DNA of 64,000 nucleotides from a virus (Duplodnaviria > Heunggongvirae > Uroviricota > Caudoviricetes). The stretch lies in IMG/VR virus record IMGVR_UViG_3300045988_004821; one strand, 5' to 3'. How positions within the stretch are numbered: position 1 is the first letter of the stretch; each line of letters begins with the position of its first letter. The notes under the pieces were generated by a model. The model saw only the letters and a list, made by a program, of their open reading frames with translations, ran no database searches and was not told where the DNA came from. The position numbers were made by a program, and so were the translations under genes. Shown one piece after another: positions 15,749 to 64,000 of this stretch.

Positions 15749-18103
15749 ATGGCAGATTACAAATTGAGTGAGCTAAACTCAATCGACACAATCCGTTCAG
15801 ATGACCTTCTTCATGTCAGAGTTAAAAAGAGACCTGAAATGCTGGGTGATGAAGACCGTCGAATGACCTATCAAGATTTCTTAGCATCTTTTAAGCTTGA
15901 AAGATTTGTTCAGATTGCTGGTAGCACTATGACGGGTGACTTAGGAATTGTTAAGCTACTTTACGGTGGCAAGGCTGTATTCGACCCCACAGGCTCTTCT
16001 GAGATTACTGTTGGTGATGTTTTAAAGACTTTTAAAATCAACGCAAACGGCCTTAAACTAACTATTGCAGACGCTTCAAGGTCGGCAACTGTTTATCATA
16101 CTTTGAATAAGCCAAGCCCTAATGAACTTGGGATGAGAACTAATGAAGAGAATGACGCAAGGTATGCAAGACTAGCCGTGAATAATACCTTTAGAGGTAC
16201 TCAAGCTATCCTCTCTGACAATGAAGCGCTCATTATTAAAAATATCACTCAAGGTGCTCCACTCTATCTTCGTGGTCAAGATGCAGATGGTACTAACAGA
16301 TGGTATCTAGGTAATGATAATAGGGGTACAAATAATCTTGTATTGAAGAATGTAAAGTCTGACGTTTCAATTGCTATTTTAGAGAATTTGGTGACAGTCA
16401 ACAGAACTCTTCAAATTGCTGGCCAAGTTCAGCCTTCAAGTTTTGCTAACTTAGATGCTAGGTATTTTACCCAGACAGCAGCTAATCAGAGATTTGCGCA
16501 GTTAGCTGGTAATAACACTTTTACTGGTACTAACACTTTCTCTAATTTTGTTGCTAAGAAGAATGCTGAAGCCATCACTCTGCAAAATGTGGACACTGCT
16601 CCCTCTTTATATATCCGAGCAAGAAAGTCAGATGGGAATTATAAGTGGTACATTGGTAATGACGGTGATGAGAACATTTTAAAAATCTATAACTATCTAA
16701 CAAAAACACAAGTCTCACTAGGTAACACTATTGCCATGAGCAAAACAGTTCAAATTGATGGTCAAGTACAACCTTCTGATTGGACTAACATTGATTCTAG
16801 ATATATTCCGGCAGCCAATTTGAGTAATCTCCCTAAACTTAATGTGTCTAATACTTTTACAAATGTGCAAACTATTGTATCTAACAACGAGGGTTTGGTA
16901 TTAAGGAACTTGACACAGGGGCAGCCACTATATATCCGTGGTGTTGATACTGAGAATGTTTCTAGATGGTGGTTAGGTGTAGGTGGTCCAAACTCTAATG
17001 TGGTAACACTTAACAACACCTATTCTGACACTAAAATCTCACTTGGTGGCTCATCAGTAATGACTAATAAGAGCTTAGCTATTACTGGTCAAGTACAACC
17101 TTCTGACTTCTCTAACTTAGATGCTAGATACTATACCCAAGCTGCCGCAAACGCAAGATATATGCTTGCAAGCATCACTGGTTCGGCTTCTGAAGCAGAT
17201 GGTGGTGATGGTGTTGCATGGGATGCAAAAACAGGTCTTTATAAGGTTACTAACACCACTGGACAGTCTTCTTCACTTGTATATAACATGTTTTTAGGGA
17301 CTAGTTCTACACCATCTGCACAATTAAAGTTTTCGTTTAAAAATGGTGGGATGTGGTATAGAACATCAAGAGATGCCTATGGCTTCGAAGTTAATTGGTC
17401 TAAAGTTTACACGGAAGCACAAAAACCAACCCCTTCAGAGATTGGTGCATACACTAAAGCTGAAACTGACCAGAAAATTGCAACAGCAATTAGTGACTCT
17501 ACAGACCTTAACAAAATCTATCCAGTTGGTATTGTAACGTGGTTTAACAGTAATGTTAACCCTAATACAGCACTCCCTGGTCTAACTTGGACGTACCTGA
17601 ATAATGGTGTTGGTAGAACTATCAGAATCGCAGCAGCAAACGGTTCAGATGTTGCTACAACTGGTGGTTCAGATTCTGTGACATTAGCTGTTGGTAACTT
17701 ACCATCACACACTCACAGTTTCTCTGCTACCACTTCATCTTTTGATTATGGTACGAAGAACACTAACAGTACTGGTGCACATACCCATTCAGTTAGTGGT
17801 ACTGCTGCATCTGCTGGGCAACACGCACACAGAATTTCACAGGGTGACAACGCTAACGTTTCATCAGGTAGAGTCGCATCTTCAAACTCTGCTCAGACCC
17901 ATGTTGGTTGGACTGAAAATGATGGTGTTCACACCCACTCAGTTAGTGGTACTGCTGCATCTGCTGGTGGACATGCTCACTCTGTAGGTATTGGTGCTCA
18001 TAGCCACACAGTTAGTGGTAACACTGGTGGTACAGGTTCTGGTTCAGCATTTAGTGTTACTAACCAGTTCTACAAGTTAATGGCTTGGGTAAGAACTGCT
18101 TAA
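15749..18103 (+). CDS. large tail fiber protein with internal repeats and His-X-His tip
   Basis: 784 aa; three approx 100-aa repeats containing GQVQPSDF/W; C-terminal HTHS/HAHS repeats ending ...MAWVRTA. Confidence 0.65.
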   Translation: MADYKLSELNSIDTIRSDDLLHVRVKKRPEMLGDEDRRMTYQDFLASFKLERFVQIAGSTMTGDLGIVKLLYGGKAVFDPTGSSEITVGDVLKTFKINANGLKLTIADASRSATVYHTLNKPSPNELGMRTNEENDARYARLAVNNTFRGTQAILSDNEALIIKNITQGAPLYLRGQDADGTNRWYLGNDNRGTNNLVLKNVKSDVSIAILENLVTVNRTLQIAGQVQPSSFANLDARYFTQTAANQRFAQLAGNNTFTGTNTFSNFVAKKNAEAITLQNVDTAPSLYIRARKSDGNYKWYIGNDGDENILKIYNYLTKTQVSLGNTIAMSKTVQIDGQVQPSDWTNIDSRYIPAANLSNLPKLNVSNTFTNVQTIVSNNEGLVLRNLTQGQPLYIRGVDTENVSRWWLGVGGPNSNVVTLNNTYSDTKISLGGSSVMTNKSLAITGQVQPSDFSNLDARYYTQAAANARYMLASITGSASEADGGDGVAWDAKTGLYKVTNTTGQSSSLVYNMFLGTSSTPSAQLKFSFKNGGMWYRTSRDAYGFEVNWSKVYTEAQKPTPSEIGAYTKAETDQKIATAISDSTDLNKIYPVGIVTWFNSNVNPNTALPGLTWTYLNNGVGRTIRIAAANGSDVATTGGSDSVTLAVGNLPSHTHSFSATTSSFDYGTKNTNSTGAHTHSVSGTAASAGQHAHRISQGDNANVSSGRVASSNSAQTHVGWTENDGVHTHSVSGTAASAGGHAHSVGIGAHSHTVSGNTGGTGSGSAFSVTNQFYKLMAWVRTA

Positions 18104-22380: not shown

Positions 22381-22740
22381 TTACTGCCATCCTTCCATAC
22401 CTTACCTTACCACACCTAACCATACCTAACCAAACTACACCATACAATACCTTATTAAAAGACCCTCTTAAAGACCTTTTAAAAAGGTAAGTCTCATTTT
22501 AATGTAGCTGAGACTAACTACCCATACCTCACCCTACCAGACCCTACCAGACCAGACCTTACCCTACCAGACCCTACCGAACATCACTTAAAAACCCTCT
22601 TAGAAGACTCTTAAGTGATGTAATCGAATTTTAATGTAGCTCCGATTAACTACCCATACCTCACCTCACCCAACCATACCATGCCTTGCCAGACCGCACC
22701 TTACCTCATTAAAAGACCCTCTTAAAAGACCTTTTAAAAA
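22381..22740. repeat. structured non-coding repeat region A (CA-rich tracts, iterons, two covarying hairpin families)
   Basis: H1 hairpins about 22455-22482, 22582-22620, 22709-22737; H2 hairpins about 22490-22515, 22621-22648; no ORF. Confidence 0.6.
22521..22580. repeat. iteron-like direct repeats (ACCCTACCAG x4)
   Basis: 10-bp units at about 22531, 22541, 22561, 22571 with ACCAGACCTT between. Confidence 0.6.
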
Positions 22741-22758
22741 GGAGCCTCCGAAGAGGCT
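22736..22758 (-). terminator. rho-independent terminator after gene 22770-23210
   Basis: On - strand AGCCTC-UUCG-GAGGCT followed by TTTTT. Confidence 0.55.
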
Positions 22759-22769
22759 ACCTAGTCAAC

Positions 22770-23210
22770 TTAGAAAGGTTTTCTACGTTGCTTGTTAATG
22801 TTAGCTTTCATAGCAGCTAAATGGTTTTGCTGTTCAATCAGTCGTGAACGTTCTTGATGACTAAGCGCCATAGTGTTCACATTCTCAATTGCTTGAGTGG
22901 CTTGCTTTAAAGCTCGACCAATCTTACCAGACATTTTGCGTTTTGCAATAGTTGCTTGATGCTTAGGTTCAACCACACGATAACCAACACCCATTGAAGC
23001 AACCAGATAAATCTTCTCTTCTTTAAGAAGCTTTTCAATAAACTTCTCAAGTCGGTTTAGACGTGTAAGTGCATAAGCCTTCATTTCATCTTCGTACTTA
23101 ACAATGTCACCTTGATAAGTTGGCTTCACAATACCTAAGAAGGTGTCCATCTCGGAATGTGATACAGTGTCGCCGTAACTAAACTTTGCTGCTAATGCTT
23201 TTGTATTCAT
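22770..23210 (-). CDS. hypothetical protein (repeat-flanked module, gene 2)
   Basis: 146-aa ORF; followed on - strand by UUCG-loop terminator. Confidence 0.4.
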   Translation of the reverse strand: MNTKALAAKFSYGDTVSHSEMDTFLGIVKPTYQGDIVKYEDEMKAYALTRLNRLEKFIEKLLKEEKIYLVASMGVGYRVVEPKHQATIAKRKMSGKIGRALKQATQAIENVNTMALSHQERSRLIEQQNHLAAMKANINKQRRKPF

Positions 23211-23212
23211 AA

Positions 23213-23818
<606 letters not shown>

Positions 23819-23841
23819 TTAGTTGATTGTTAAATTGTTTG

Positions 23842-24187
23842 TAAAGAACCCTCAACAGAAGACTCTTTAGAAACTTGGTAGATTTTTAACGTGGCTACTA
23901 CCATCCACCCATACCATGCCACACCACACCGGACCTTACCTAACCCGACCTTACCATACCTGACCTAACCCTACCATACCTTATTAAAAGACCCTGTTTA
24001 AAGACCTTTTAAAAAGGTAAGTCTCATTTTTATGTAGCTGAGACTAACTACCCACACCAAACCATAGCATACATCGCATTACCGGACAGAACCATACTTT
24101 ACCAAACATCACTTAAAAACCCTCTTAGAAGACTCTTAAGTGATGCTGGTGAGTACCCGTTGGTTTATGCTGCTCAGTATACTCACC
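23842..24187. repeat. structured non-coding repeat region B (paralogous to region A)
   Basis: H1 hairpins about 23842-23869, 23984-24012, 24107-24145; H2 about 24020-24045; extra hairpin GGTGAGTA...TACTCACC 24148-24187. Confidence 0.6.
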
Positions 24188-35569: not shown

Positions 35570-36610
35570 ATGGAGAAGTATACACTAACAAAACTTCCCG
35601 ATTCAGTTACACATGTCTTTATTGACTCTGATAGCATTGCCTATAAAGGTGCTTGTGTAGTTGAGAAAGCAAAATATAAATATGTCAATAAACTCACAGC
35701 AGAAGAATCTGAACCATTTGATAATGCAAAAGATGCTGCAAGATGGTTAGCAGACCAGAGAATCCTTGTGGAAGAGCTTGGCCTGACATTTGATGAAGAT
35801 GAATGGGAAAGACAGACTTGGAAAGAAGCTAAGAGTGAAAAAGAAGCTATCATGGCTACTCAGCAGGTTCTTCAGGAATGGCTTAAGGTTGTTGGTAAAG
35901 AAAGAACTTGGGTAGGCTACTTAACAGAGAAGGGTGTACATAAACATAAAGACATTAAAGGTCTTGAGCACCAATATCAAGGTAACCGTAAAGATGCTGT
36001 CACACCAACACACTTAGTTGCTTGTCGTGAATATCTTCTGTCAAGACCAGAGTTCAAGCTCTTAAAGGGAGGCTTCGAAGCCGATTCCATCGTAATTGCT
36101 AAAGCTGAAAAGATGGGTAAGAAGGCTGCTCTTATGAGTATTGATAAAGACCTTCGACAAGCTGAAGGGACTTATTGTATTGATATGACTTATGAAAAGT
36201 CACCACTAATTTTTATTGCTGATAATAATGTTGGTGATATCTGGGATTGTCCTATCAAATCAAAACCAAAAGCTGCAAAAACAGTTGGTGTAGGTTTTAA
36301 ATTTTTGTGTTATCAGGCTGTTGCTGGAGATAATGCAGACAACTACTTCGGCCTTAAAGGTGCTGGCAAAGTAGCTGTGATGAATGCTTTAGATGGTAAA
36401 GAGACCTATAAAGAGTGTCTTGATGCTATCTATGAACTCTATGCTAAAAAAGAGTCTTACACCTATGTGTCATGGGATGGACAGACTGTTACCAAAACAC
36501 CATTAGAGTTAATGGAACAACATTTCTGGGTAGCATATCAAGAGAGAAATCCAAAAGATAATTTCTCTTTTAAGAAATATAATTGGGAGCCGTGTATGAA
36601 TGAAGATTAA
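35570..36610 (+). CDS. 5'-3' exonuclease / flap endonuclease
   Basis: Motifs FIDSDSIAYK, YQGNRK, EADSIVIA, helix-3-turn-helix GDNADNYFGLKGAGKV as in T5 D15 / T4 RNase H. Confidence 0.7.
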   Translation: MEKYTLTKLPDSVTHVFIDSDSIAYKGACVVEKAKYKYVNKLTAEESEPFDNAKDAARWLADQRILVEELGLTFDEDEWERQTWKEAKSEKEAIMATQQVLQEWLKVVGKERTWVGYLTEKGVHKHKDIKGLEHQYQGNRKDAVTPTHLVACREYLLSRPEFKLLKGGFEADSIVIAKAEKMGKKAALMSIDKDLRQAEGTYCIDMTYEKSPLIFIADNNVGDIWDCPIKSKPKAAKTVGVGFKFLCYQAVAGDNADNYFGLKGAGKVAVMNALDGKETYKECLDAIYELYAKKESYTYVSWDGQTVTKTPLELMEQHFWVAYQERNPKDNFSFKKYNWEPCMNED

Positions 36611-37097
36611 AGGATTTGGCAATTGCCCCACCTATGGTCATTGGGTATCTTTGTGTGGGGAAGTTGACCCCACTAAACATTTTGGCTTTGTCTATTTAGT
36701 ATACTGTAAGAAAACCGGACAATATTATATCGGAAAGAAACAGCTTAATAGTGTGACCAAAAGAAAAGTTGCTGGCAAGACTCGGAAGAAGGTAGTCACT
36801 AAGGAAAGTGATTGGATGACTTATGAGACTTCTTCTGAGTATATTAAAAAAGATATTGAGAGCTTTGGAAAAGAATTTTTTGACTTTTATATTATTCAAA
36901 CCTACCACACAAAAGGTGGTCTAGTTTATGGTGAAGCAAACCTTCAACATAAATTCGATGTAATGACAAAAAGGATTGACTCTAAGCTCAGACTCTTCTA
37001 CAATGCCAATATTGCAGCAATTAAGTTTATTACTAAAGAAACTTATGAAGATGCTGAAAAAAGAATCCATAAGGTAATGAAAGCAAACTGTGCTTGA
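36600..37097 (+). CDS. putative GIY-YIG domain nuclease
   Basis: N-terminal FVYLVYCKKTGQYYIGKK resembles the GIY-(10)-YIG motif. Confidence 0.35.
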   Translation: MKIKGFGNCPTYGHWVSLCGEVDPTKHFGFVYLVYCKKTGQYYIGKKQLNSVTKRKVAGKTRKKVVTKESDWMTYETSSEYIKKDIESFGKEFFDFYIIQTYHTKGGLVYGEANLQHKFDVMTKRIDSKLRLFYNANIAAIKFITKETYEDAEKRIHKVMKANCA

Positions 37098-42883: not shown

Positions 42884-45028
42884 ATGAACAAAGTACAGAT
42901 TATTAAAAAGAACGGCTCACTTGAAGAACCTGATATCAAAAAAGTTTTAGCAGCAGTAGCTAAGTCAGCTAACAGGGTTGGATATAAAGAACTTCCACCA
43001 GATGTTACCCAAGCTCTTGAGTCAGCATTCATGAGGATTTTGGTAAAGTCCACTAAGCAGAATAATTTGCTTATCTCGGTAAATGATATTCACAGTATTG
43101 TTGAAGGTGCTTTGGCAGAAGTTAATCACGAGATTTATGAGTCTTACTCAACATACAGAAATTACCGTAAAGAGGTTGCTCAAAATTGGGATGAACTCTA
43201 CCAGAAGACTAAAGATACACTCTTCTTAGGTGACCGTGAAAATGCTAACTTTGACAGCAGTTTAATTTCTACGAAAGGTTCAATTATCCGTGGTTACCTG
43301 ACTAAAGAAATCTTTAAACAATACCATTTAACACCAGAGGAACTTGAAGCCATTGAAAAAGGGTTTATCTACATCCATGACTTAAGAGACCTAATTTTTG
43401 GTGGTATTAACTGTTGCTTGTTTGACATTGGTAAAGTACTGAAAGGTGGCTTTGAAATGTCTGGCATCGAATACTGTGAACCGAAGTCTGTGCTGTCAGC
43501 CTTACAGGTTATTGGTGATGTAGTTCTTTCAGCAACTGCACAGCAATTTGGTGGCTTTACTTTAGCAGAGATTGATAAGGTACTTGTACCGTATGCTAAG
43601 AAGTCTCTACGCTATCATGCTGAGAAAGCAGCATCTTATGGTATTCCTAAAGAACATTACCATAATTATGTCATGGAGCAGCTACAGATTGAATTAACTC
43701 AAGGTTTTCAGTCACTTGAAATGAAGCTAAACACTGTACCTTGTAGTCGTGGGGATTTTGCATTCACAACTTTAACATTTGGGTTGCTCGACTCAGATAT
43801 GTCTAATGAAGACAACCGACTACAATACATGATTGCAAGTACTCTCCTAGATGTTCGTATGAATGGACAAGGTAAGAGCAAGAAGCCTGTTGTATTTCCT
43901 AAACTGGTTTATATTTATGACCAGAAGAGACACGATGAGAATATCTGTCAAGGACACCTGTACAGTAAAGCTATAGAGTGTTGCTCTAAAGCGATGTATC
44001 CAGATTTCTTAAGTGTATCTGGTCATGGTGCTGTAGCAGAAGCTTTTGAGCGTTCTGGCAAGGTTATTTCGCCGATGGGTTGCCGAGCGTTCTTATCTCC
44101 GTATCTTAACGAGAATGGGGAAGAGTTCTACGTTGGTCGTGCTAACATTGGTGCTGTATCTTTGAACTTACCAATGATTTACCAGTATTCTAAAGAGAAC
44201 GGTTTAGATTTCTGGAAAGAGCTTGATAAGTACCTAGAAATGATTCGCAGCTTCCACAAGAAACGTTACGAAATGATTGCTAATATGCCAGCAAGTTCTA
44301 ACCCTCTTGCATTTACACAAGGTGGTCTGTATAAAGGAACTAAGAAGCCTACTGACAGGGTTGGCTGGGATATTGTGAAGTCCTTCACAGCTTCTTTTGG
44401 GGTTACTGCGCTTGATGAGTTATCTGTTCTTGCTGAAGGTAAACGACTTCATGAAGTTGGAAGCTATAGTTTTGCATACGATGTTCTGGCGTACATCAAC
44501 ATGAAAACTGAAGAGTTTAAAAATGAAGATGGTTTCTTATATGCAGTCTATGGCACTCCAGCAGAATCACTATGTGGGACTCAGCTAAAACAGTTCAGAG
44601 ATATGTTTGGGGTTATCAAAGGTGTTTCCGATAAGGAATACTTTACAAACAGTTTCCATATGAATGTTGTAGCAGACATCTCACCATTTGAGAAGCAGGA
44701 CTTAGAAGAGCCATTCTTCCATATCTGTAGAGGCGGTAGAATCCAGTATGTAAGAGTAGCTAACCCAGAAAACTTATCAGCACTTAAAAGTTGTATTACT
44801 AGAGGGATGTTGAAGGGTTTTTATCAGGGACTTAACTTTGACTTAGCAATCTGTGAACATTGTGGTAACAGACCAAAGGCTGATGTTGAAGAATGTGAGG
44901 TTTGCCATTCACATGATATCTCTGTGATTAACAGGGTGTGCGGGTACTTGTCATTCACAAAAATTAAAGGTCAGTCTCGAATGAATGACGCTAAGATGGC
45001 AGAAATTAAGGATAGGGTTTCTATGTAG
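42884..45028 (+). CDS. nrdD: anaerobic ribonucleotide reductase (class III)
   Basis: 714 aa; C-terminal glycine-radical motif RVCGYLS; Cys-rich zinc site CEHCG...CEVCH; activase gene downstream. Confidence 0.85.
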   Translation: MNKVQIIKKNGSLEEPDIKKVLAAVAKSANRVGYKELPPDVTQALESAFMRILVKSTKQNNLLISVNDIHSIVEGALAEVNHEIYESYSTYRNYRKEVAQNWDELYQKTKDTLFLGDRENANFDSSLISTKGSIIRGYLTKEIFKQYHLTPEELEAIEKGFIYIHDLRDLIFGGINCCLFDIGKVLKGGFEMSGIEYCEPKSVLSALQVIGDVVLSATAQQFGGFTLAEIDKVLVPYAKKSLRYHAEKAASYGIPKEHYHNYVMEQLQIELTQGFQSLEMKLNTVPCSRGDFAFTTLTFGLLDSDMSNEDNRLQYMIASTLLDVRMNGQGKSKKPVVFPKLVYIYDQKRHDENICQGHLYSKAIECCSKAMYPDFLSVSGHGAVAEAFERSGKVISPMGCRAFLSPYLNENGEEFYVGRANIGAVSLNLPMIYQYSKENGLDFWKELDKYLEMIRSFHKKRYEMIANMPASSNPLAFTQGGLYKGTKKPTDRVGWDIVKSFTASFGVTALDELSVLAEGKRLHEVGSYSFAYDVLAYINMKTEEFKNEDGFLYAVYGTPAESLCGTQLKQFRDMFGVIKGVSDKEYFTNSFHMNVVADISPFEKQDLEEPFFHICRGGRIQYVRVANPENLSALKSCITRGMLKGFYQGLNFDLAICEHCGNRPKADVEECEVCHSHDISVINRVCGYLSFTKIKGQSRMNDAKMAEIKDRVSM

Positions 45029-45035
45029 AATACAA

Positions 45036-45608
45036 ATGAATTACGAACTAATATATAATGCAATTATTAAAAAGGCACATTCTGAAAGGGGTGTGCCTCT
45101 CACATACTACAAATGTCAAGGTAAGGGTTATGAAAGACACCATATCATACCAGTATGTCTAGGTGGCGATAAAATTAGTGGAGATAACATTGCTTTACTT
45201 ACACCTAGAGAGCATTATATAGCTCATAAATTACTGGTTAAGATGTATCCAAACAATCATAAGTTATGGTTTGCATGGAGCAGGTTAGCTCATGATGGCC
45301 TAGATAGGAAAATATCATCCAGAGACTATGAAAAGGTAAGGGCTTTAAACTCGAAAGCTCTATCGATTGTGAATAAAGGTAGGGTTTTCACTGAAGAGCA
45401 TCGAAGACGATTAGGAGAAGCTCAAATAGGTAATACAAAGTCAAAAGGTTGTAAAAGGTCTATGGAAACAAGGAAGAAGATGTCAGAAGCCGGAAAAAAG
45501 CCAAAGAAAAAGAAAACTTGCCCGCATTGTGGCATGACTGGTGGTGCTGGTAACATGACTCGATATCATTTTGACAATTGTAAGAAAAAAAAAAATAACC
45601 TTATGTAA
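45036..45608 (+). CDS. HNH homing endonuclease
   Basis: HNH motif YERHHIIPVCLGGDKISGDNIALLTPREHYIAH; inserted between nrdD and nrdG; start set at MNYELIY (track start 44985). Confidence 0.7.
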   Translation: MNYELIYNAIIKKAHSERGVPLTYYKCQGKGYERHHIIPVCLGGDKISGDNIALLTPREHYIAHKLLVKMYPNNHKLWFAWSRLAHDGLDRKISSRDYEKVRALNSKALSIVNKGRVFTEEHRRRLGEAQIGNTKSKGCKRSMETRKKMSEAGKKPKKKKTCPHCGMTGGAGNMTRYHFDNCKKKKNNLM

Positions 45609-52220: not shown

Positions 52221-54587
52221 ATGCGCATGGTAAACGACCACGCAGAAGTGATTAAGAGTTCAACTTCTTTAGAGACGTCTCAAGCACAGATTACAATGAC
52301 ACCTGAAATGTTCAGCCTTTTGAGTTCTGGTGTATATACCTTTAAAGAAAGGGCAGTGATTCGTGAACTGTCATGTAACGCAGTAGATGCTCAGAAAGAA
52401 GCTGGAAAAGAGAATATCCCGTTCCATGTGCATTTACCTACTCGTTTTGAGCCTTACTTTGAAGTCCGTGATTTTGGAACTGGATTGACTCATGATAAAG
52501 TTATGAGTTTGTACCTAAACTACGGGGCTTCTACGAAGAATGACTCTAATGATTACATTGGTGCAATGGGTATCGGCTCAAAATCTCCATTTGCAATTGC
52601 TCAGTCATTCACAGTATCTAGCTATGTTGACGGTGTTGTTAATAAGTACTCAGTTTACCTTGAGAATGGTATCCCTCAAGTAACTAAGCTTACTACCAAC
52701 CCAACAAAGGAACCTAATGGCTTAGCTGTACGTGTAGCAGTTGCTGACCATCGTATCTCAAAATTCTTTGAAGAAGCTGGTCACGTATACTCATACTTTG
52801 CTGTAAAACCAGAAAGCAATATCGAGTATGACGATGTATTAGCAGATATGAACGTCATTGCCCGTGAAGAAGGTGTTTATGATGCCATGATTCATAAGCA
52901 AAGCTGGCGTTCTAGTAGTAACAGGACAGAGTTTAATGTGGTGATGGGTAACATTGCATACCCTGTTAACATGGAAGCATTACTTGGTGATGATTTCTTC
53001 AAAGTCTTGCCAGAATTTTTCCGTAGGAGCGTAGACCTTGTAAACATCTACATGCCTATTGGTTCAGTTGCTATTGCAGCTTCTCGTGAAGCATTGCAGA
53101 TGAATGACACGACAAAAAATGTTATCATTGAGGCTACTAAAAAGATAACTGAAGCAATTACAAAGGATGTTATCAAGAAAGTTAATAGCCAACCTACACT
53201 CATGGATGCTGCACAGGCTTATGCTGAGTTACGTTTGAACTCACGAGAGATGTTTAATGCTGTGTGTCCAAAGCTAGAGTGGGGAGGTGTTAAGCTTGAT
53301 TCTCTGGAAGAAGAATTACTAAACATTCGTCGTGGAATTATCTACGCAGAAGACGGCTCAGTCATCTATGAACGTGACGGCAAAGGTAATATTAAGGTTG
53401 ACAGTAAAGGAAACAACATTCCTAAAGTGGACTACCTATACAATCCAGTTGCTTATGTTAAGTTCAACTCTTTAGAGAGTAAGATTCGTGCAACAGCACT
53501 TTCCTACACTCAAGAAGCAAGCATGTTCAATATCTTTGGTGCAATGCGTAAAAGTCAAATTGAACAGTTTTTGTTCGTGATTAATGACCGTCGCAATAAA
53601 AACGGTACTGAGAAGACTGTAGGACGCAATCAAATCTTGCGTGGTGCATGTCGAGATTATGCCAGTGAGTCGAATCTGTTTCACAGATACAATGGTATTG
53701 TGTTTGTATTCTCGACTGAAAAAGAGTTAGATGATTTAATCAATCTACATAAACTTGATAAAAGCTTGTTAAAGATTGTGAAAATGTCTGATAAGGAGCA
53801 CCATTACCAGCGCAAAGAAGCTGTAAGGGGTGTTGTAAAACTCTGGAAAGCTGTTCCAGCAGAAGGTGTAGCTTCCTATAAAGAGGTTTCAGAGGACTTT
53901 GATACAATTGAAGAACCTCAGCTTTACATTAAGGCAGTTGGTGACACAGTTGATGGCGAATGTTTTTGCTCATCTCCAGAAGATGTAGCCAAGTCAGTTG
54001 CTAATGTTACAGGGAAGACAGTCTATGTTTTCCGAAAAGCAAATTGGAAAAAGATACCAGAAGACTGGATTGAAGTAGATGAGAAACTCTTGAACGACAG
54101 CTTAACTGATGTTCATTGGATTAATCATAACAGGTATATGACACGTATCTATATGAATGGTGTCCTTGACCTTACAAGCAGTTGGATTATTGCCAGAAAC
54201 TTTACGTTCAATAACAGGAAGATTTCTCGTGGCTATTGCTATTCACGAGACACAAACAAAACTATCTTCTTAGAAGGTAATGAAGAGGCTGTAGAGGCAA
54301 TGTTCGGTAAAATCCAATACGTTGCTGCACCATTTGCATACACTTATACTATTAGTGTATTGAAAACTTTGAAAGACTGTCTTGACAATGATACAAAGCT
54401 TTACAAGAAAATTAAGAAAGCTGGTGACCGTATGGTCATTAAGGTGACAAACTACCTTTCAAAAAGAAAACAAGAAAACTTCTTGCTTTCTCATTTGGAT
54501 TGGAATAAAGTGTCACCCATCGAAGTGAGTAAGTTCTTAGGCTTTGATGTGAAGTGTGTTCCAGAAGGGACTACAATTTACGATTAA
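52221..54587 (+). CDS. rIIA: rIIA protein
   Basis: GHKL ATPase-like N-terminus (RELSCNAVDA, RDFGTGL, NDYIGAMGIGSKSPF) and SVAIAASREAL block as in T4 rIIA. Confidence 0.85.
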   Translation: MRMVNDHAEVIKSSTSLETSQAQITMTPEMFSLLSSGVYTFKERAVIRELSCNAVDAQKEAGKENIPFHVHLPTRFEPYFEVRDFGTGLTHDKVMSLYLNYGASTKNDSNDYIGAMGIGSKSPFAIAQSFTVSSYVDGVVNKYSVYLENGIPQVTKLTTNPTKEPNGLAVRVAVADHRISKFFEEAGHVYSYFAVKPESNIEYDDVLADMNVIAREEGVYDAMIHKQSWRSSSNRTEFNVVMGNIAYPVNMEALLGDDFFKVLPEFFRRSVDLVNIYMPIGSVAIAASREALQMNDTTKNVIIEATKKITEAITKDVIKKVNSQPTLMDAAQAYAELRLNSREMFNAVCPKLEWGGVKLDSLEEELLNIRRGIIYAEDGSVIYERDGKGNIKVDSKGNNIPKVDYLYNPVAYVKFNSLESKIRATALSYTQEASMFNIFGAMRKSQIEQFLFVINDRRNKNGTEKTVGRNQILRGACRDYASESNLFHRYNGIVFVFSTEKELDDLINLHKLDKSLLKIVKMSDKEHHYQRKEAVRGVVKLWKAVPAEGVASYKEVSEDFDTIEEPQLYIKAVGDTVDGECFCSSPEDVAKSVANVTGKTVYVFRKANWKKIPEDWIEVDEKLLNDSLTDVHWINHNRYMTRIYMNGVLDLTSSWIIARNFTFNNRKISRGYCYSRDTNKTIFLEGNEEAVEAMFGKIQYVAAPFAYTYTISVLKTLKDCLDNDTKLYKKIKKAGDRMVIKVTNYLSKRKQENFLLSHLDWNKVSPIEVSKFLGFDVKCVPEGTTIYD

Positions 54588-54592
54588 AGTGT

Positions 54593-54622
54593 TTGACAAG
54601 GGGCTTCAAAGCCCCTTAGAAT
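54593..54622 (+). promoter_or_regulatory. sigma70-like promoter upstream of rIIB with hairpin in the spacer
   Basis: TTGACA-17/18 bp-TAGAAT; spacer contains AAGGGGC-TTCAAA-GCCCCTT. Confidence 0.45.
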
Positions 54623-54664
54623 ATCCTCACAAAATGATTTATTAACTAACAAGAGAGTAATAAG

Positions 54665-55774
54665 ATGACTACTAAAACTAAAGCACAGATTGACGCAGAA
54701 ATTTACAAACTGGTTAAAGAAGGTAAGCTGACTAAGACAGCTATTGCACAGAAATTTAATACTTCAACCCGTTCAGTTGGTCGTGCTGTAGAGCGTCATG
54801 AAGCAACCTTAAAAGGTAATAAGAAGGCGACTTCTACACCAGCTACGAAGACTTTGAAACAAGTTGCTAAGACTTTTAAAAAGAAATCTGACAAACCAGT
54901 TGAAAAAGTCGTTAAAGAGGTTGTACAGAAAGCTCCAGTAAATAAACTGCACGAAGCTATGCAGAAAGATGACAAGATTGAGTACATGATTACTGGTGAC
55001 TCTGTAATTATGACTTACGGTTCAGAGTCTGAAATTGTTGAATCTACTCATCCGAACTATCAAGAGATTGTAGTTCATGTTGTGAAAGGTGAGTTTAAGA
55101 AAGCCTTTGAACTAATGAATATTCGTAAGTCTATTGAAAACTTCACTCAGGGTGCTATCACAATCAAAGGTGACAAGTTATTCTACGGTGCTGTTGAGAT
55201 GCGTTCTACTCTGGTTGACCGTATTCTTCACATGATGAAGACTGGAGATAAAGGTTTTGAGCGCCTTGTGATGTTCTTCGAAAAACTGATGGAAAACCCA
55301 TCTAAAGACTCTGTAGAACAACTTTGGGGCTTTGTATCTCACCTTGATGTTGAAATTGATGAAGAAGGTTACATCATTGGTTGGAAGAAAGTATCTACTC
55401 GTGAAGGCAAGCTGGTTGACTCCCACACCTACAGAGTACCTAATGATTTGGGTAACATTGTAGAAATGCCACGTTGGATGGTTGATAATAACCGTAACGT
55501 GACTTGCTCTCAAGGTCTTCATGTTGGTGCTTGGGATTATGTTCGTTGCTTCTCAGGTGATACAATTCTGAAGGTTCGTGTCCATCCACGAGACGTTGTA
55601 TCCGTACCAACTGATTACAACGATATGAAGATGCGCTCGTCTCGTTATGAAGTTGCAGCAATCGTTGATAATCAACGTAAAGTGCTGAAAGCATGGGATG
55701 GCAAGACTGAAGCTTTACATGTCATCGTCGGTACTGCTGGAGAACTTATCTCCCAACGTAAACGTGAAATCTAA
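54665..55774 (+). CDS. rIIB: rIIB protein
   Basis: C-terminal block VRVHPRDVVSVPTDYNDMKMRSSRYEV and RSTLVDRIL as in T4 rIIB; directly downstream of rIIA. Confidence 0.85.
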   Translation: MTTKTKAQIDAEIYKLVKEGKLTKTAIAQKFNTSTRSVGRAVERHEATLKGNKKATSTPATKTLKQVAKTFKKKSDKPVEKVVKEVVQKAPVNKLHEAMQKDDKIEYMITGDSVIMTYGSESEIVESTHPNYQEIVVHVVKGEFKKAFELMNIRKSIENFTQGAITIKGDKLFYGAVEMRSTLVDRILHMMKTGDKGFERLVMFFEKLMENPSKDSVEQLWGFVSHLDVEIDEEGYIIGWKKVSTREGKLVDSHTYRVPNDLGNIVEMPRWMVDNNRNVTCSQGLHVGAWDYVRCFSGDTILKVRVHPRDVVSVPTDYNDMKMRSSRYEVAAIVDNQRKVLKAWDGKTEALHVIVGTAGELISQRKREI

Positions 55775-60222: not shown

Positions 60223-60255
60223 TTAGTACTTTACAGTATCTACAAATCATCTAAG

Positions 60256-60301
60256 AAGGCTGCCTAACCCATTGAAAAATTTAAGGTAAGGCGGCCTTTT
60301 T
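60256..60301 (+). terminator. long-loop hairpin with T-run after macrodomain gene (possible terminator)
   Basis: AAGGCTGCCT ... AGGCGGCCTT stem (one wobble), 23-nt loop, then TTTTT. Confidence 0.35.
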
Positions 60302-60440
60302 CATTTTCAATTTGTGCAGGTATCTGTAGGGGTCTGTACAGATATCCCAAAAAATCTCATCGCCGGATAGAAAAATCATTTTCAAAACGTGCAGACCCCG
60401 CTCAGGTCGGGCAAGAAAAATCATTTTAGAATCGTGCAGG
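60301..60440 (+). repeat. three 20-bp direct repeats TCATTTT(C/A)NA(A/T)N(T/C)GTGCAG
   Basis: Copies at about 60301-60320, 60376-60395, 60421-60440 in a 490-bp ORF-free region. Confidence 0.5.
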
Positions 60441-60466
60441 TAGGTTTTTATAGAGAGCCAGACCAA

Positions 60467-60497
60467 CCCCTCTCCCCCTCTTACTCCCCCTCTCCCC
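60467..60497. repeat. homopyrimidine mirror repeat (potential H-DNA/triplex)
   Basis: CCCCTCTCCCCCTC-TTA-CTCCCCCTCTCCCC: 14-nt arms with perfect mirror symmetry. Confidence 0.55.
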
Positions 60498-60618
60498 AAA
60501 AGTCAAGAGAAAAATTTGTAGCGGATTGAAAAATAATTATTGATTTGTGTTCTGTTTTGTGGTAGTCGTGTGCGCCCGTTTCATTACAGTTTTTCCAAAA
60601 ATATTTTTAAAATTTTTC

Positions 60619-60647
60619 TTGACTCTTTGAACGTGGTTATCTAGTAT
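60619..60647 (+). promoter_or_regulatory. strong sigma70-like promoter of cassette A1
   Basis: TTGACT-17 bp-TAGTAT with AT-rich UP-like tract upstream; hairpin and RBS follow. Confidence 0.55.
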
Positions 60648-60650
60648 TTG

Positions 60651-60710
60651 CATCAACGGGGAGGGAATGACCTTCCCCACTAAATAAAGTCCTAAACTGG
60701 AGATTCAAAA
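60651..60710 (+). promoter_or_regulatory. cassette A1: 5' leader hairpin plus conserved RBS block
   Basis: ATCAACGGGGAGGGAATGACCTTCCCCACTAAATAAAGTCCTAAACTGGAGATTCAAAA then ATG. Confidence 0.5.
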
Positions 60711-61091
60711 ATGGCATATCGTGCACCTAAATTCATCAACAAAGACAACTTTCGCAACGCACTGGAGAAGTCACTTGATGAGAATTTTAAAGGTAATGTT
60801 ATTGTTGTTCACTCGTTTAATTTTAAGTATGATATCAACGGGAATAAAATCAACCATTACACGGCAACAATGTTAGATGGCACGCTTTCAAGTGAAAAAA
60901 CCATTTTACATGCACTTGCTGGACGTGGTAAAAACCTGATAAAATGCGATAAGAGACGTTATCAGGGTGGCGCATATGGTTATGATGATGCTGTTTATCA
61001 TCTTGAAAATATGGGCTATAAAGTAGAAAAAGCTGGGGTATCGCAAATCATCGGTAGTGATGGCTATGTAACAATCTTCAAAATTAACTGA
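60711..61091 (+). CDS. hypothetical early protein (cassette gene 1)
   Basis: 126-aa ORF behind promoter/hairpin/RBS cassette A1. Confidence 0.4.
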   Translation: MAYRAPKFINKDNFRNALEKSLDENFKGNVIVVHSFNFKYDINGNKINHYTATMLDGTLSSEKTILHALAGRGKNLIKCDKRRYQGGAYGYDDAVYHLENMGYKVEKAGVSQIIGSDGYVTIFKIN

Positions 61092-61180
61092 TAAAGTACT
61101 TTACAAGGGGCTTATAGTTCGATAAAGTAAGCCCCAGATAAAGAGCTTTACCACTAAATCCTAAATTGGAGAACTTAAAA
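61092..61180 (+). promoter_or_regulatory. cassette B1: intergenic hairpin plus conserved leader/RBS
   Basis: AGTACTTTACA, hairpin GGGGCTTA-N13-TAAGCCCC (61107-61135), AGATAAAGAGCTTTACCACTAAATCCTAAATTGGAGAACTTAAAA then ATG. Confidence 0.5.
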
Positions 61181-61190
61181 ATGGCTATTA
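61092..61190 (+). repeat. 99-bp perfect direct repeat, copy 1 (partner 63114-63212)
   Basis: Identical by eye from TAAAGTACTTTACAAGGGG through ATGGCTATTA. Confidence 0.6.
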
Positions 61191-61438
61191 TCAAAAACGT
61201 TGTAATTACCGCAAAGACTCGTGATGACGCTCGTATCATGGCTAAAAAGTTATGCGGGAAAGTGGTTGACAACGGAAAACAATCTGCTGTAAGGTGGGGC
61301 GTGAAGGTTGATAAACAACTAACCTTAAAACGCAGTTCAAACAACCTTTTTAAAGGTGTAAAATCACTCGGTAAAGTGAACGTCTTTACCAAAAAAGGCT
61401 ATAAAATGCACTTATCATTAACTGGCAATTTAATCTGA
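61181..61438 (+). CDS. hypothetical early protein (cassette gene 2)
   Basis: ATG start preferred over track TTG at 61166; preceded by cassette B1. Confidence 0.4.
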   Translation: MAIIKNVVITAKTRDDARIMAKKLCGKVVDNGKQSAVRWGVKVDKQLTLKRSSNNLFKGVKSLGKVNVFTKKGYKMHLSLTGNLI

Positions 61439-61526
61439 TAAAGTACTTTACAGGGGGCTTAAAAGCTGATACCTTAAGCCCCAGATAAAGAGCTTTACCA
61501 CTAAATCCTAAACTGGAGATTCAAAA
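61439..61526 (+). promoter_or_regulatory. cassette B2
   Basis: Hairpin GGGGCTTA-N13-TAAGCCCC (about 61454-61482) with different loop, then conserved leader and RBS. Confidence 0.5.
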
Positions 61527-62039
61527 ATGAAAACTGTAGACGCTACCTTTGAAGTTGTAAAAGAAAAATTCACCATTATTTATGAAGCTGTCAATTGCTT
61601 TGAAGCAAGCCATAATCTTGATAATTGGGAGTTTACAGACGACCATCAAGGCGGTGTGACTGTTAAAAATCCTAACTATCAGCATAATGAATTTAAATAT
61701 GCAATTCCTTTGCATTACAGCCTTAAACAGCTTTCTAGTGACTATGCAAAACAAGGCCGGGGGAATCCATCAAAAGAGGCTTACGCCAGCTTACAGAAAG
61801 AACTAGAAAGAGATTTAGAGGCTTCAGAGTATAACCTTGCCGCGAAAGTTGTGGATGCAAACGGTAGCACGGTTTTAGAAAGTTTTTATCTTGGTTATGC
61901 TTTCGATTGGTGCTATCGTGACGGCGATGATTTAGAGGATAGACTAAAAGAAGAGGTGAACAACGCAGACGCAGAATCTGAAGTATTAGAACGTTTGGAA
62001 TCGTTGAAAGACTCAGTGATGAATATCTTTAAGAACTAA
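61527..62039 (+). CDS. hypothetical acidic early protein (cassette gene 3)
   Basis: 170 aa, Asp/Glu-rich; preceded by cassette B2. Confidence 0.4.
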   Translation: MKTVDATFEVVKEKFTIIYEAVNCFEASHNLDNWEFTDDHQGGVTVKNPNYQHNEFKYAIPLHYSLKQLSSDYAKQGRGNPSKEAYASLQKELERDLEASEYNLAAKVVDANGSTVLESFYLGYAFDWCYRDGDDLEDRLKEEVNNADAESEVLERLESLKDSVMNIFKN

Positions 62040-62130
62040 ATAGATTTCTTTACACGGGGCTAACAAGCGGATATGATAGCCCCAGATAAAGAGATTTATC
62101 AAATTAACCCTTAAACTAGGAGATTCAAAA
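62040..62130 (+). promoter_or_regulatory. cassette B3 (diverged copy)
   Basis: Hairpin GGGGCTA-N14-TAGCCCC (about 62056-62083) with compensatory stem change, then AGATAAAGAG...GGAGATTCAAAA then ATG. Confidence 0.45.
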
Positions 62131-62427
62131 ATGAAATTATCAAATAAAGTTAGGGAAAACCTTAGCAAATTACTCAATAAAATTGATTTTATCGAGACAT
62201 CAAGAAATAGTCATGATGTTATGGAATGGTTACACGGCAAAATAAAAGGCCGTCGTGTAGTGATTTGCTTATGGAATAGTTGCAGGGAGTATAAAAATCC
62301 TGTATTGCAAATTAATGTTTATGATGATACTTGTAAAAGTCCTGTTAAGTCTGAAAGTGATTTACTAGATTCTTATGAGATAACTGTAAATGGCAAAGTG
62401 TCACGCAAAGAGGAAGCACTATGTTAA
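62131..62427 (+). CDS. hypothetical early protein (cassette gene 4)
   Basis: 98-aa ORF preceded by cassette B3. Confidence 0.4.
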   Translation: MKLSNKVRENLSKLLNKIDFIETSRNSHDVMEWLHGKIKGRRVVICLWNSCREYKNPVLQINVYDDTCKSPVKSESDLLDSYEITVNGKVSRKEEALC

Positions 62428-62753
62428 TGATGGGTATCACTGCAATCATTGCTATTATGGCGCTATATAAGGCGTACAGCGCCTACAATCTGGCAAGTAA
62501 GGCAATCACGCAACAGGTCAATAATAGCCTTGTAATGAGTTTTCTGGAGCGTTTAAGTGATGAACAAATAAAACGGTTAGAAATGAGCTTCAGATTTCAA
62601 TCAAAAACTTATCAAATCAGCGACATTTTCAAAGATAATTTTCAGCTTGTCGATGATTATAACTCTCTGATAAATGCTTTAAATATCAGTGACTTAAAAG
62701 ACTATTACACTGTAATTGTCCAAGAACTGAACAAACGAAAAAATTTCTCTTGA
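62421..62753 (+). CDS. hypothetical membrane protein (cassette gene 5)
   Basis: N-terminal hydrophobic helix MGITAIIAIMALY; start overlaps upstream gene. Confidence 0.35.
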   Translation: MLMMGITAIIAIMALYKAYSAYNLASKAITQQVNNSLVMSFLERLSDEQIKRLEMSFRFQSKTYQISDIFKDNFQLVDDYNSLINALNISDLKDYYTVIVQELNKRKNFS

Positions 62754-62778
62754 TTTTAGTTTTAAAAACAAGTAAATT
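62750..62778 (+). promoter_or_regulatory. sigma70-like promoter of cassette A2
   Basis: TTGATT-17 bp-TAAATT followed by ATCAACGGGGAGG hairpin as in A1/A3. Confidence 0.45.
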
Positions 62779-62783
62779 ACTAA

Positions 62784-62843
62784 TCAACGGGGAGGGAATG
62801 GCCTTCCCCACTAAGTAAAGTCCTTAAACTAGGAGATTCTAAA
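62784..62843 (+). promoter_or_regulatory. cassette A2: 5' leader hairpin plus conserved RBS block
   Basis: Near-identical to A1 (GGGGAGGGAATGGCCTTCCCC ... CTAGGAGATTCTAAA then ATG). Confidence 0.5.
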
Positions 62844-63116
62844 ATGTACACTACTAACAACGGTCGCACCTTAAACGTAACCCTACGCCACTATGTGAAC
62901 GGTGTAATGCACTTCGAGGATTTACAAGCTGAACAGCACATTTTGGATTGGCAACTTGCAGGATTCCAAAAAACTGCTACAGGATACGGGAAAAAGATTC
63001 CAACCAGTTGGAAAGTATACTACGAAGGACGTTTACGCAGAATTTATCAAGATGTGCAAAGCAATAGCGCATCGAGTTACATTATAGTAAAAGGCAAAAA
63101 ACTGCATTTAATGTAA
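62844..63116 (+). CDS. hypothetical early protein (cassette gene 6)
   Basis: 90-aa ORF behind promoter/hairpin cassette A2. Confidence 0.4.
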   Translation: MYTTNNGRTLNVTLRHYVNGVMHFEDLQAEQHILDWQLAGFQKTATGYGKKIPTSWKVYYEGRLRRIYQDVQSNSASSYIIVKGKKLHLM

Positions 63117-63202
63117 AGTACTTTACAAGGGGCTTATAGTTCGATAAAGTAAGCCCCAGATAAAGAGCTTTACCACTAAATCCTAAATTGGAGAACTTAA
63201 AA
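63114..63202 (+). promoter_or_regulatory. cassette B4 (identical to B1)
   Basis: Hairpin about 63129-63157; sequence identical to B1 through the first codons. Confidence 0.5.
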
Positions 63203-63212
63203 ATGGCTATTA
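63114..63212 (+). repeat. 99-bp perfect direct repeat, copy 2 (partner 61092-61190)
   Basis: Same sequence as copy 1; spans stop codon, hairpin, leader and first codons. Confidence 0.6.
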
Positions 63213-63607
63213 ATAACCGTGAATTATCAATTTTAAAAGCACGTTTGACCGTTAATCGAATCAACATTATGACATCATCAGCGCCTGATGAGACATTGCA
63301 CAACATTATCGGAAAGATTCAAAGCGTTATTTTAGACGTTGAAAACGTAAAAAGCTCATTGGCTGACGTTGCAGCAGGTATCACACTAGATGGCGCACAA
63401 TATGAAATGTCCGACATGTTAGGCAAATCAAAGGTAATGAATAAAGAGCTTGATTTAAAGATGTTCCGATTTGCTGTTAAAGTATGGCTATCCGTCGAGT
63501 ATGACGCTAATTTTGCAATCGCTGATTTCTTTGCCACTTGGTTACAACGTAATTTGACAAATCACGATTTCCGTGATGTCTGCGATGCAATTTATGCAGA
63601 ACTCTAA
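63203..63607 (+). CDS. hypothetical early protein (cassette gene 7)
   Basis: ATG start preferred over track TTG at 63188; preceded by cassette B4. Confidence 0.4.
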   Translation: MAINNRELSILKARLTVNRINIMTSSAPDETLHNIIGKIQSVILDVENVKSSLADVAAGITLDGAQYEMSDMLGKSKVMNKELDLKMFRFAVKVWLSVEYDANFAIADFFATWLQRNLTNHDFRDVCDAIYAEL

Positions 63608-63616
63608 AAAATTTTG

Positions 63617-63645
63617 TTGACACTGGTTTTTAGATAGATTAAATT
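63617..63645 (+). promoter_or_regulatory. sigma70-like promoter of cassette A3
   Basis: TTGACA-17 bp-TAAATT followed by ATCAACGGGGAGG hairpin. Confidence 0.5.
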
Positions 63646-63649
63646 ACAC

Positions 63650-63708
63650 ATCAACGGGGAGGAAATGACCTCCCCCACTAAATAAAGTCCTAAACTGGAG
63701 ATTCAAAA
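63650..63708 (+). promoter_or_regulatory. cassette A3: 5' leader hairpin plus conserved RBS block
   Basis: GGGGAGG-AAATGA-CCTCCCC perfect 7-bp stem, then ACTAAATAAAGTCCTAAACTGGAGATTCAAAA then ATG. Confidence 0.5.
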
Positions 63709-63912
63709 ATGGCTATTATTAATGGTTTAACCATTGAAACTACACACATCAAAGATATCAAAGTTGGCGATATAGTCCTTTCCCACGGCGTAGAAAAAAC
63801 TGTCACTGCAAAGGATATTAAAGAGGATTCTTTCATGGGTAGGACTCTCTTCGGTGATTCTTATTGCTTAGGCTATCTTGCAGTTTTAAAAGTTGTCAAA
63901 AATAACAAATAA
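63709..63912 (+). CDS. hypothetical early protein (cassette gene 8)
   Basis: 67-aa ORF behind promoter/hairpin cassette A3. Confidence 0.4.
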   Translation: MAIINGLTIETTHIKDIKVGDIVLSHGVEKTVTAKDIKEDSFMGRTLFGDSYCLGYLAVLKVVKNNK

Positions 63913-63997
63913 AGTACTTTACAGGGGGCTTATAAGTCTGTACAGTAAGCCCCAGATAAAGAGCTTTACCACTAAATCCTAAACTGGAGATTCAAAA
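63913..63997 (+). promoter_or_regulatory. cassette B5
   Basis: Hairpin GGGGCTTA-N13-TAAGCCCC about 63925-63953, then conserved leader and RBS. Confidence 0.5.
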
Positions 63998-64000
63998 ATG
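63998..64000 (+). CDS. start codon of a further cassette gene truncated by the window end
   Basis: ATG at the same position relative to cassette B5 as in other cassette genes. Confidence 0.3.

Follow-up and report, generated by a model that had tools for sequence, protein, structure and literature searches.

The stretch analyzed here is a viral DNA of 64,000 nucleotides (nt) (IMG/VR record IMGVR_UViG_3300045988_004821), which we call the window and which derives from a Felix O1-like myovirus (Felixounavirus) with vB_EcoM_AYO145A as its best match (94.6% identity). Near its end lies an array of small early genes separated by repeated intergenic elements, which we term linkers, and two of these linkers, at 61092 to 61190 (copy 1) and 63114 to 63212 (copy 2), form the perfect 99-bp direct repeat that is the subject of this work. 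The region matches 251 phage records, essentially all of them from Felix O1-like myoviruses; in these relatives, the array comprises 12 to 16 small genes on one strand, has a terminator at its end, and is preceded by rIIA, rIIB, PseT (polynucleotide kinase), the spanins, and a macro-domain protein gene. According to the open reading frame (ORF) list, the block between the repeats (61181 to 63116) holds five genes on the plus strand, as are all features of the array given below, namely, genes of 258 bp (61181 to 61438), 513 bp (61527 to 62039), 297 bp (62131 to 62427), 333 bp (62421 to 62753), and 273 bp (62844 to 63116). A 381-bp gene lies upstream of copy 1 (60711 to 61091) and a 405-bp gene downstream of copy 2 (63203 to 63607), the latter having only its first 10 nt in common with the 258-bp gene. 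For each gene in or beside the block between the repeats, the only match was a PHROG of unknown function, and a Pfam search of the same genes returned no domain, so that the two resources together gave no function. A preliminary description of this DNA, made by reading the sequence, had four genes bracketed by the repeats; there are indeed four cassettes, but five ORFs, since the 297- and 333-bp genes overlap by 7 nt (62421 to 62427, in ATGTTAATG) and have one linker for both. This overlap and the common linker suggest translational coupling, and the pair behaves as one cassette in all relatives.

The two copies of the repeat were compared directly as strings. They are identical at 99 of 99 positions and mismatched at the first base outside each border, confirming the identity that had been claimed by eye. 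The pair is the longest perfect direct repeat within the window, where the chance level for a perfect 99-bp repeat is ~1e-50, and its 24-nt core was counted 5 times there versus 0 times in 100 shuffles. The repeat had been described as running from the upstream stop codon through hairpin, leader, and ribosome-binding site (RBS) to the ninth base of the downstream gene. The ATGs at 61181 and 63203 place the first 10 bases (ATGGCTATTA) of each downstream gene, not nine, within the repeat; moreover, copy 2 begins on the genuine stop of its upstream gene (TAA, 63114 to 63116), whereas copy 1 begins on a second in-frame TAA directly after the real TGA stop (61089 to 61091). In addition, three unrelated cassette genes (starting at 61181, 63203, and 63709) open with the same codons (ATGGCTATTA..., encoding Met-Ala-Ile), suggesting that linker homology, or selection on the initiation region, reaches into the coding sequence. 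The 99-bp repeat is an ordinary member of a genus-wide family of regulatory intergenic linkers, which the preliminary description had not recognized, and its copies 1 and 2 are designated A1 and A4 according to their place in that family.

Eight linkers are present in the window, all of them within 60.6 to 64.0 kb and none elsewhere, and they are of two types. Type A linkers (starting at 61092, 61439, 62040, 63114, and 63910) comprise, in this order, a stop codon, TAAAGTAC, TTTACA, any one base, GGGGCTTA, a loop of 11 to 13 nt, TAAGCCCC, AGATAAAGAGCTTTACC, and a leader. Type B linkers (starting at 60608, 62739, and 63606) comprise an AT-rich tract, a TTGACA-like hexamer, 17 nt, and TAAATT or TAGTAT, followed by ~10 nt, the inverted repeat GGGGAGG...CCTCCCC, and the same leader as in type A. 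Every copy of either type closes with a Shine-Dalgarno sequence and a start codon (GGAG, 8 to 9 nt, ATG). A1 lies between the 381- and 258-bp genes and has an orthologue in all relatives; A4, identical to it, lies between the 273- and 405-bp genes. The other type A linkers of the window, copies of 77 to 87% identity in contrast to the perfect A1/A4 pair, are A2 before the 513-bp gene (61439 to 61526; 77% identical to A1), A3 before the 297-bp gene (62040 to 62130; diverged, with compensatory changes in the lower stem), and A5 before the next gene (63910 to 64000; cut by the window end). Of the type B linkers, the one at 60608 to 60710 has TTGACT-17-TAGTAT at 60619 to 60647 and its hairpin at 60658 to 60678, followed by the leader, GGAG, and an ATG at 60711; the one inside the repeat-bounded block (62739 to 62843) has TTGATT-17-TAAATT at 62750 to 62778 and its hairpin at 62789 to 62809; and the one at 63606 to 63708 has TTGACA-17-TAAATT at 63617 to 63645 and its hairpin at 63656 to 63675, the equivalent site in AYO145A being annotated as a promoter. 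Within the repeat itself, a consensus scan predicted a sigma70-like promoter, TTTACA-17-TAAAGT (61100 to 61128 in A1, 63122 to 63150 in A4), RNA folding gave a long interrupted hairpin (61092 to 61151 and 63114 to 63173), and GGAG precedes the ATG by a 9-nt spacer (61168 to 61183 for the 258-bp gene, 63190 to 63205 for the 405-bp gene).

The preliminary description had further proposed that, with the pair as substrate, the 2 kb between its copies could be deleted or duplicated. We built the two junctions predicted for such an exchange, i.e., a deletion junction (381-bp gene, one linker, 405-bp gene) and a circle/duplication junction (273-bp gene, one linker, 258-bp gene), and searched them against 50,697 phage records. 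Escherichia phage vB_EcoM_DE7 (DE7) has both junctions, each as one uninterrupted BLAST alignment, and is the sole genome with both; with junction-specific patterns, DE7 was likewise the only match among 39 loci. Relative to AYO145A, the block is gone from its usual place in DE7, with exactly one type A linker left, and it reappears 2 kb downstream, with the 342-bp gene before it and the 531-bp gene after it, in circularly permuted order (273-258-...-333). There, the linkers on its two sides are reciprocal chimeras of two type B linkers, those normally found before the 273- and 531-bp genes; the type B linker at 62739 to 62843 in the window is the element through which the block would have gone back in. 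Since all other genomes, including that of Citrobacter phage Michonne, have the canonical order, DE7 represents the derived state. The simplest history for DE7 is that a circle was excised by exchange between A1 and A4 and then re-inserted by exchange between two type B linkers. As far as genome sequences can tell, DE7 bears out that the recombination predicted for this pair has happened in nature. The relocated DE7 block also has two deletions (locus L009, 7690 to 7800), neither of them at linkers; its 258-bp gene is fused at the 3' end to the final ~30 nt of the 513-bp gene, and of the 297-bp gene almost nothing is left. Phages VpaE1 and HK3 gave 100% matches to the circle-junction query as well, but these were in two pieces resulting from loss of the 513-bp gene, without rearrangement, and were rejected.

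Cassette maps of 38 loci, together with individual loci, revealed further gains and losses at linkers. Clean losses that left one ~90-bp linker each were found for the 258-bp cassette (loci L018 and L030), for a 204-bp cassette (L029), and for the 513-bp cassette (VpaE1, HK3, wV8, and others). The linker left by loss of the 513-bp cassette is an A2/A3 chimera in which the crossover lies between hairpin and RBS in VpaE1 and beside the ATG in wV8; such different crossover points speak for events that were independent and for recombination of the general, not the site-specific, kind. Extra cassettes occur as well, with genes of 207 bp, 249 bp, and 52 codons, the last of these accompanied by a type B linker of its own. 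The 249-bp cassette stands before the 204-bp gene in a metagenomic Felix O1-like contig (L021, 3368 to 3906, reverse complement) and after it in EF202P1 and XTG1 (compare L006, 7488 to 8026), the alleles being 78% identical. In Michonne, the 258-bp cassette is perfectly duplicated in tandem (L012, 6001 to 6867; 258 of 258 positions identical), which could be real or an assembly artifact; at the duplication junction, the ATG of one linker is joined directly to the CTTTACA of the next, leaving an empty linker.

Perfect identity of A1 and A4 had been taken to imply recent duplication or gene conversion. Duplication of a segment was rejected, because homology ends at the element borders and the flanking proteins are unrelated, both upstream (126 versus 90 amino acids [aa]) and downstream (85 versus 134 aa) of the copies. 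Furthermore, a near-identical A1/A4 pair occupies the same two positions in every relative examined, including 18 other genomes, and the linkers before the 258- and 405-bp genes have the same loop (TATAGTTCGATAAAGTA) in all of them, indicating that the pair is old. The 99-mer was found exactly or at ≥99% identity in 43 phage records, and the family in 288 records, all of them Ounavirinae by name and spanning three genera. Between the window and Michonne, linkers are 73 to 84% identical and adjacent genes 60 to 76%; thus, between genera, linker sequences are as conserved as the neighboring genes or more so. Gene conversion fared better, as a property of the family: A1 and A4 differ at a mean of 4.8 positions within a genome versus 6.7 between genomes (18 distinct genomes; P = 0.003 in a permutation test that takes the genomes as independent and ignores their relatedness), and orthologous A4 copies differ from one another by 8.2 positions. 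Consistently, paralogous linkers carry variants of their own lineage, a signature of gene conversion or repeated exchange: NBEco005 has GGAGATTCT in both copies, which are 100% identical to each other, HK3 a different leader in both copies, DE7 GAGATTTACC in all three copies, and L020 CTTTACTACTCAATCC in both copies, and in L029, too, lineage-specific variants are common to its paralogues. The linkers therefore evolve in concert. For the genome in the window taken alone, keeping the commonest allele would explain the perfect identity equally well.

To characterize the two overlapping signals of the type A linker, 49 distinct copies were aligned from Felixounavirus, Mooglevirus (Michonne), and Kolesnikvirus (Erwinia phage SunLIRen). 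RNA folding of type A linkers yielded a hairpin of ~22 bp broken by 1x1 and 3x3 internal loops (ΔG of -25 to -28 kcal/mol, z of -3.1 to -5.4). In A1 (ΔG of -25.3 kcal/mol, z of -3.5), the lower stems are TAAAGT/GCTTTA and CTTTA/TAAAG, with the 3x3 internal loop, and the apical stem is GGGGCTTAT/GTAAGCCCC (61107 to 61135). Across the alignment, pairing is retained in 93% of cells versus at most 55% in slid controls. Covariation within Felixounavirus was too weak, as the element is too conserved there, and with the Mooglevirus and Kolesnikvirus copies added, three compensated pairs were detected, including a G-C to U-A change in all Erwinia copies. The retained pairing, together with these few independent events, indicates that the hairpin itself is constrained.

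The same alignment points to a promoter. CTTTACA is invariant in the 49 copies, as is a TA dinucleotide (-12/-11) located 17 nt downstream of TTTACA within the hairpin loop (TAnnnT); G-14, two bases before this TA, and T-7, five bases further on, are at least 90% conserved, whereas other loop positions vary. The single stem-length indel between type A subtypes lies downstream of the -10 element, so the 17-nt spacing is preserved. These invariant and conserved positions are the ones that matter most in a sigma70 promoter of the form -35, 17 nt, (TGn)TAnnnT. The same promoter-around-hairpin layout occurs in the rIIA-rIIB gap (54587 to 54665), where TTGACA and TAGAAT enclose a hairpin (GGGGCTTCAAAGCCCC) at an 18-nt spacing and where AYO145A has an annotated promoter, and the -35/hairpin/-10 layout is found as well in the linkers of Erwinia phages, whose hairpin sequence differs. 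From these patterns, we infer that the type A linker carries a host sigma70-type promoter with the hairpin nested within it. Felix O1 encodes no RNA polymerase (Whichard et al. 2010). By reverse transcription-PCR, its ORFs 13, 16, 20, 21, and 22 peak at 5 min and its ORFs 14, 17, 19, and 23 at 25 min (Whichard et al. 2010); such differing peak times of neighboring array genes, albeit of low resolution, fit individually driven cassettes. A literature search for transcriptomics of Felix O1-like phages found none.

Taken together, these observations make it probable that the linkers are promoter/hairpin/RBS modules whose recombination deletes, duplicates, and moves the genes between them. Each linker would fit into <100 bp all that a small gene requires, from the stop codon of its predecessor through a host sigma70-type promoter, GC-rich hairpin, and constant 5' leader to GGAG and the start codon. 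In type A, the hairpin would fill the promoter spacer, with the -10 element in its loop and 3' arm, and transcripts would start ~7 nt downstream of TAnnnT, near the A of CCCCAGAT (~61136 in A1, ~63158 in A4). Transcripts initiated at a linker would accordingly begin just 3' of the hairpin and lack it, and only RNA reading through from upstream would form it; in such RNA, the hairpin may serve as a 3'-end stabilizer, an attenuator, or a processing site. Being near-identical, the linkers would also act as portable homology. Homologous recombination between direct linkers would release the intervening genes as a circle and leave one linker behind; the reverse reaction would insert cassettes, unequal exchange would duplicate them, and nonreciprocal exchange would homogenize the linkers.

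This scheme has a close counterpart in the promoter-early stem-loop (PeSL) cassettes of T4-like phages (Arbiol et al. 2010, PMC2839356; Comeau et al. 2014, PMC4122927). A PeSL is a conserved intergenic composite with an early promoter of sigma70-like type, a stem-loop of the form GGGG...CCCC, and a Shine-Dalgarno sequence with start codon; the linkers likewise have predicted sigma70-like -35 and -10 hexamers with ~17-nt spacing, a stable GC-rich stem-loop, and a Shine-Dalgarno sequence and start codon at their 3' end. The promoter sequences are close as well (TTTACW-N17-TAYWAT as the T4/PST PeSL consensus, TTTACA-N17-TAnnnT in the linkers of Felix O1-like phages). Both kinds of element are repeated and concentrated in a hyperplastic region of small ORFans, as with the eight linkers at 60.6 to 64.0 kb, and in both, the borders of indels and replacements between close relatives fall in the elements. 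Excision and insertion of cassettes via mini-circles has been proposed for PeSLs, the same scheme as in the DE7 history above. However, the T4-like stem-loop lies just upstream of the promoter and has been shown to terminate transcription, whereas the linker hairpin of type A is nested in the promoter spacer and -10 element and that of type B is part of the transcribed leader, neither with a U-tract, and the phages belong to another subfamily, Ounavirinae. We therefore treat the linkers, which have most PeSL features but not the defining order of terminator stem-loop and promoter, as a variant that may work like PeSLs and not as members of the PeSL family; a search of the available literature library for a link between PeSLs and Felix O1-like phages found none. 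Repeats of the linker family have been listed before. In Felix O1, the same element has been reported as two 57-bp repeats (CTTTACATGGGGCTTAAAAGTCTGTAAAGTAAGCCCCAGATAAAGAGCTTTACCACT) between genes 15/16 and 19/20 and as 39-bp repeats (TTGACACTGG...) between genes 18/19 and 20/21 (Whichard et al. 2010), and in the GenBank record of wV8, DR_1 to DR_9 are annotated along the array, the text of the wV8 paper being without discussion of repeats. These Felix O1 and wV8 sources list the repeats only, with no reading in terms of structure, promoter, cassette shuffling, or concerted evolution.

Several points weigh against the proposed combination of promoter, hairpin, and recombination module. The -10 hexamers are weak (3 to 4 of 6 consensus matches), and the TTTA of the -35 element is also base-paired in the lower stem, which is a second possible cause of its invariance. 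Covariation is limited to three pairs with few independent events among related sequences. No U-tract follows any linker hairpin, AGATAAAGAGC standing there instead, and a terminator scan found none at linkers; for these reasons, the linkers were rejected as canonical intrinsic terminators. DE7 is a single database record in which repeat-driven misassembly is possible; its junctions were not found in IMG/VR or JGI metagenome contigs, in scans without a positive control for phage abundance, and one IMG/VR scan, whose pattern was not junction-specific, returned normal arrangements only. No recombinase was found among the 20 large ORFs scanned, which do not cover the window exhaustively, and the identity of A1 and A4 here may reflect purifying selection on the commonest allele (43 records at ≥99%) rather than recent conversion. 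That the promoter is active, that the hairpin has a role in RNA, that a circle is the intermediate, and which machinery recombines the linkers are matters of deduction.

The main rival takes type A as purely an RNA element, i.e., an intercistronic hairpin for processing and stabilization, cleaved by RNase III in a long early transcript that the type B promoters alone would drive, with TTTACA and TAnnnT incidental. The RNase III hairpins of the T7 early operon are long, imperfect, and intercistronic, with internal loops, and lie between small early genes; the ~22 bp of interrupted double-stranded RNA with 1x1 and 3x3 loops that the linkers place between cistrons has the same general shape, agrees with the ~20 bp expected of such sites, and could leave a protective 3' hairpin on the upstream message. 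T7 sites differ in having no promoter and in not being known as recombination linkers. Invariance of the internal-loop bases CA and AGA, pairing of TTTA, the compensatory changes, and the location of type A elements between clear type B promoters all suit this reading, yet it leaves unexplained why an unpaired TA and G-14 are fixed 17 nt from TTTACA while the loop varies, and why the same layout recurs at rIIA-rIIB and in Erwinia-phage hairpins of unrelated sequence; an Rfam search at a permissive threshold gave no relevant match for the linker. We attach a low, though appreciable, probability to a purely RNA element, and RNase III-type processing could also coexist with the promoter. The opposite emphasis, on DNA recognition, would make the linkers operator-like sites for a phage regulator, constraint alone keeping them identical and recombination being a side effect. 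Mycobacteriophage stoperators and start-associated sequences offer a comparison, and conservation is extreme at the internal-loop bases and in the 3' half (AGATAAAGAGCTTTACC), more than a promoter requires, with linkers more conserved across genera than the adjacent genes. Nevertheless, constraint alone yields no lineage-specific variants common to paralogues, and no candidate regulator was identified; we regard this explanation as quite improbable.

Still less probable, in our judgment, is a dedicated site-specific system resembling integrons, in which a recombinase of phage or host would recognize the imperfect palindrome and move cassettes as circles. Integrons are arrays of attC cassettes, usually promoterless, that are moved as circles by the tyrosine recombinase IntI at defined core sites. 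The linkers resemble them as imperfect palindromes between small promoter-proximal genes in a cassette array, the circularly permuted relocation in DE7 would fit, and Arbiol et al. (2010, PMC2839356) speculated that the GGGG...CCCC stems of PeSLs might be recognized by a protein. Against such a system, the cassettes bring expression signals of their own, and the crossover point changes along the linker from event to event instead of being fixed (hairpin to RBS in VpaE1, by the ATG in wV8, in type B in DE7); exchange occurs only like with like, A with A and B with B; no core site lies at some of the DE7 deletions or at the duplication junction of Michonne; and the scan of 20 large ORFs, which was not exhaustive, revealed no integrase-like protein. 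Finally, 99-bp perfect identity among copies that are otherwise 77 to 87% identical might suggest an artifact or a very recent segmental duplication in this genome. This idea retains hardly any probability and is refuted by the unrelated flanking genes, by identity that stops exactly at the element borders, and by the presence of the pair at the same positions in 18 other genomes, in one of which (NBEco005) the copies are 100% identical too.

Other features of the window were noted in passing. Between the macro-domain gene and the first linker lies a noncoding gap of ~390 bp (60223 to 60607), in which DE7 has an annotated 267-bp coding sequence; the gap holds a terminator (~60259 to 60306), a 31-nt C/T tract (60467 to 60497), and two 39-bp direct repeats (60356 to 60394 and 60401 to 60439; ...GAAAAATCATTTT...CGTGCAG). 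At 22395 to 24145, five modules of ~95 to 130 nt with ACC-rich, 6-nt-periodic repeats (CCTTACCTAACC...), each closing with TTAAAAGACCCTCTTAAAGACC and a small palindrome, flank a 200-aa minus-strand ORF beside the gene for DNA ligase; they may represent iterons or an origin. ORFs matching homing-endonuclease PHROGs lie at 44985 to 45608 and 36600 to 37097; one of the two overlaps the 3' end of nrdD, and one also matches an NAD synthetase PHROG. Direct repeats (50 to 71 nt, 72 to 82% identical) at 16415 to 17151 and 17762 to 17980 lie inside a 784-aa ORF (15749 to 18103) and resemble those reported for the Felix O1 tail-fiber genes 76/77.

What makes these linkers interesting is linker-mediated cassette shuffling within Ounavirinae, the compact design with a hairpin in the predicted promoter, and the rearrangement in DE7. 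With them, the PeSL idea, of a regulatory cassette that doubles as a recombination linker, would reach beyond T4-like phages into a second myovirus subfamily, where the layout is more compact. In practical terms, linkers offer natural landing pads for payload genes, with expression signals ready-made, and the linker region is a place where short-read assemblies can be mis-joined. A more speculative extension, which we consider improbable, is that the linkers are active sites of cassette exchange in strictly virulent phages, their palindrome being read by a structure-specific factor of phage or host. If so, single genes would leave as circles and re-enter at any linker, including those of co-infecting phages from other Ounavirinae genera, which carry the same linker element at 76 to 85% identity, and the array would match integrons in function while lacking an integrase. 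Typing, biocontrol, and therapy directed at Salmonella and E. coli make wide use of Felix O1-like phages, and early genes are the class that usually holds host-takeover and anti-defense functions. Linker-mediated loss, gain, and relocation of such genes explains much of the variation among isolates, and predicts low-level heterogeneity in production lysates.

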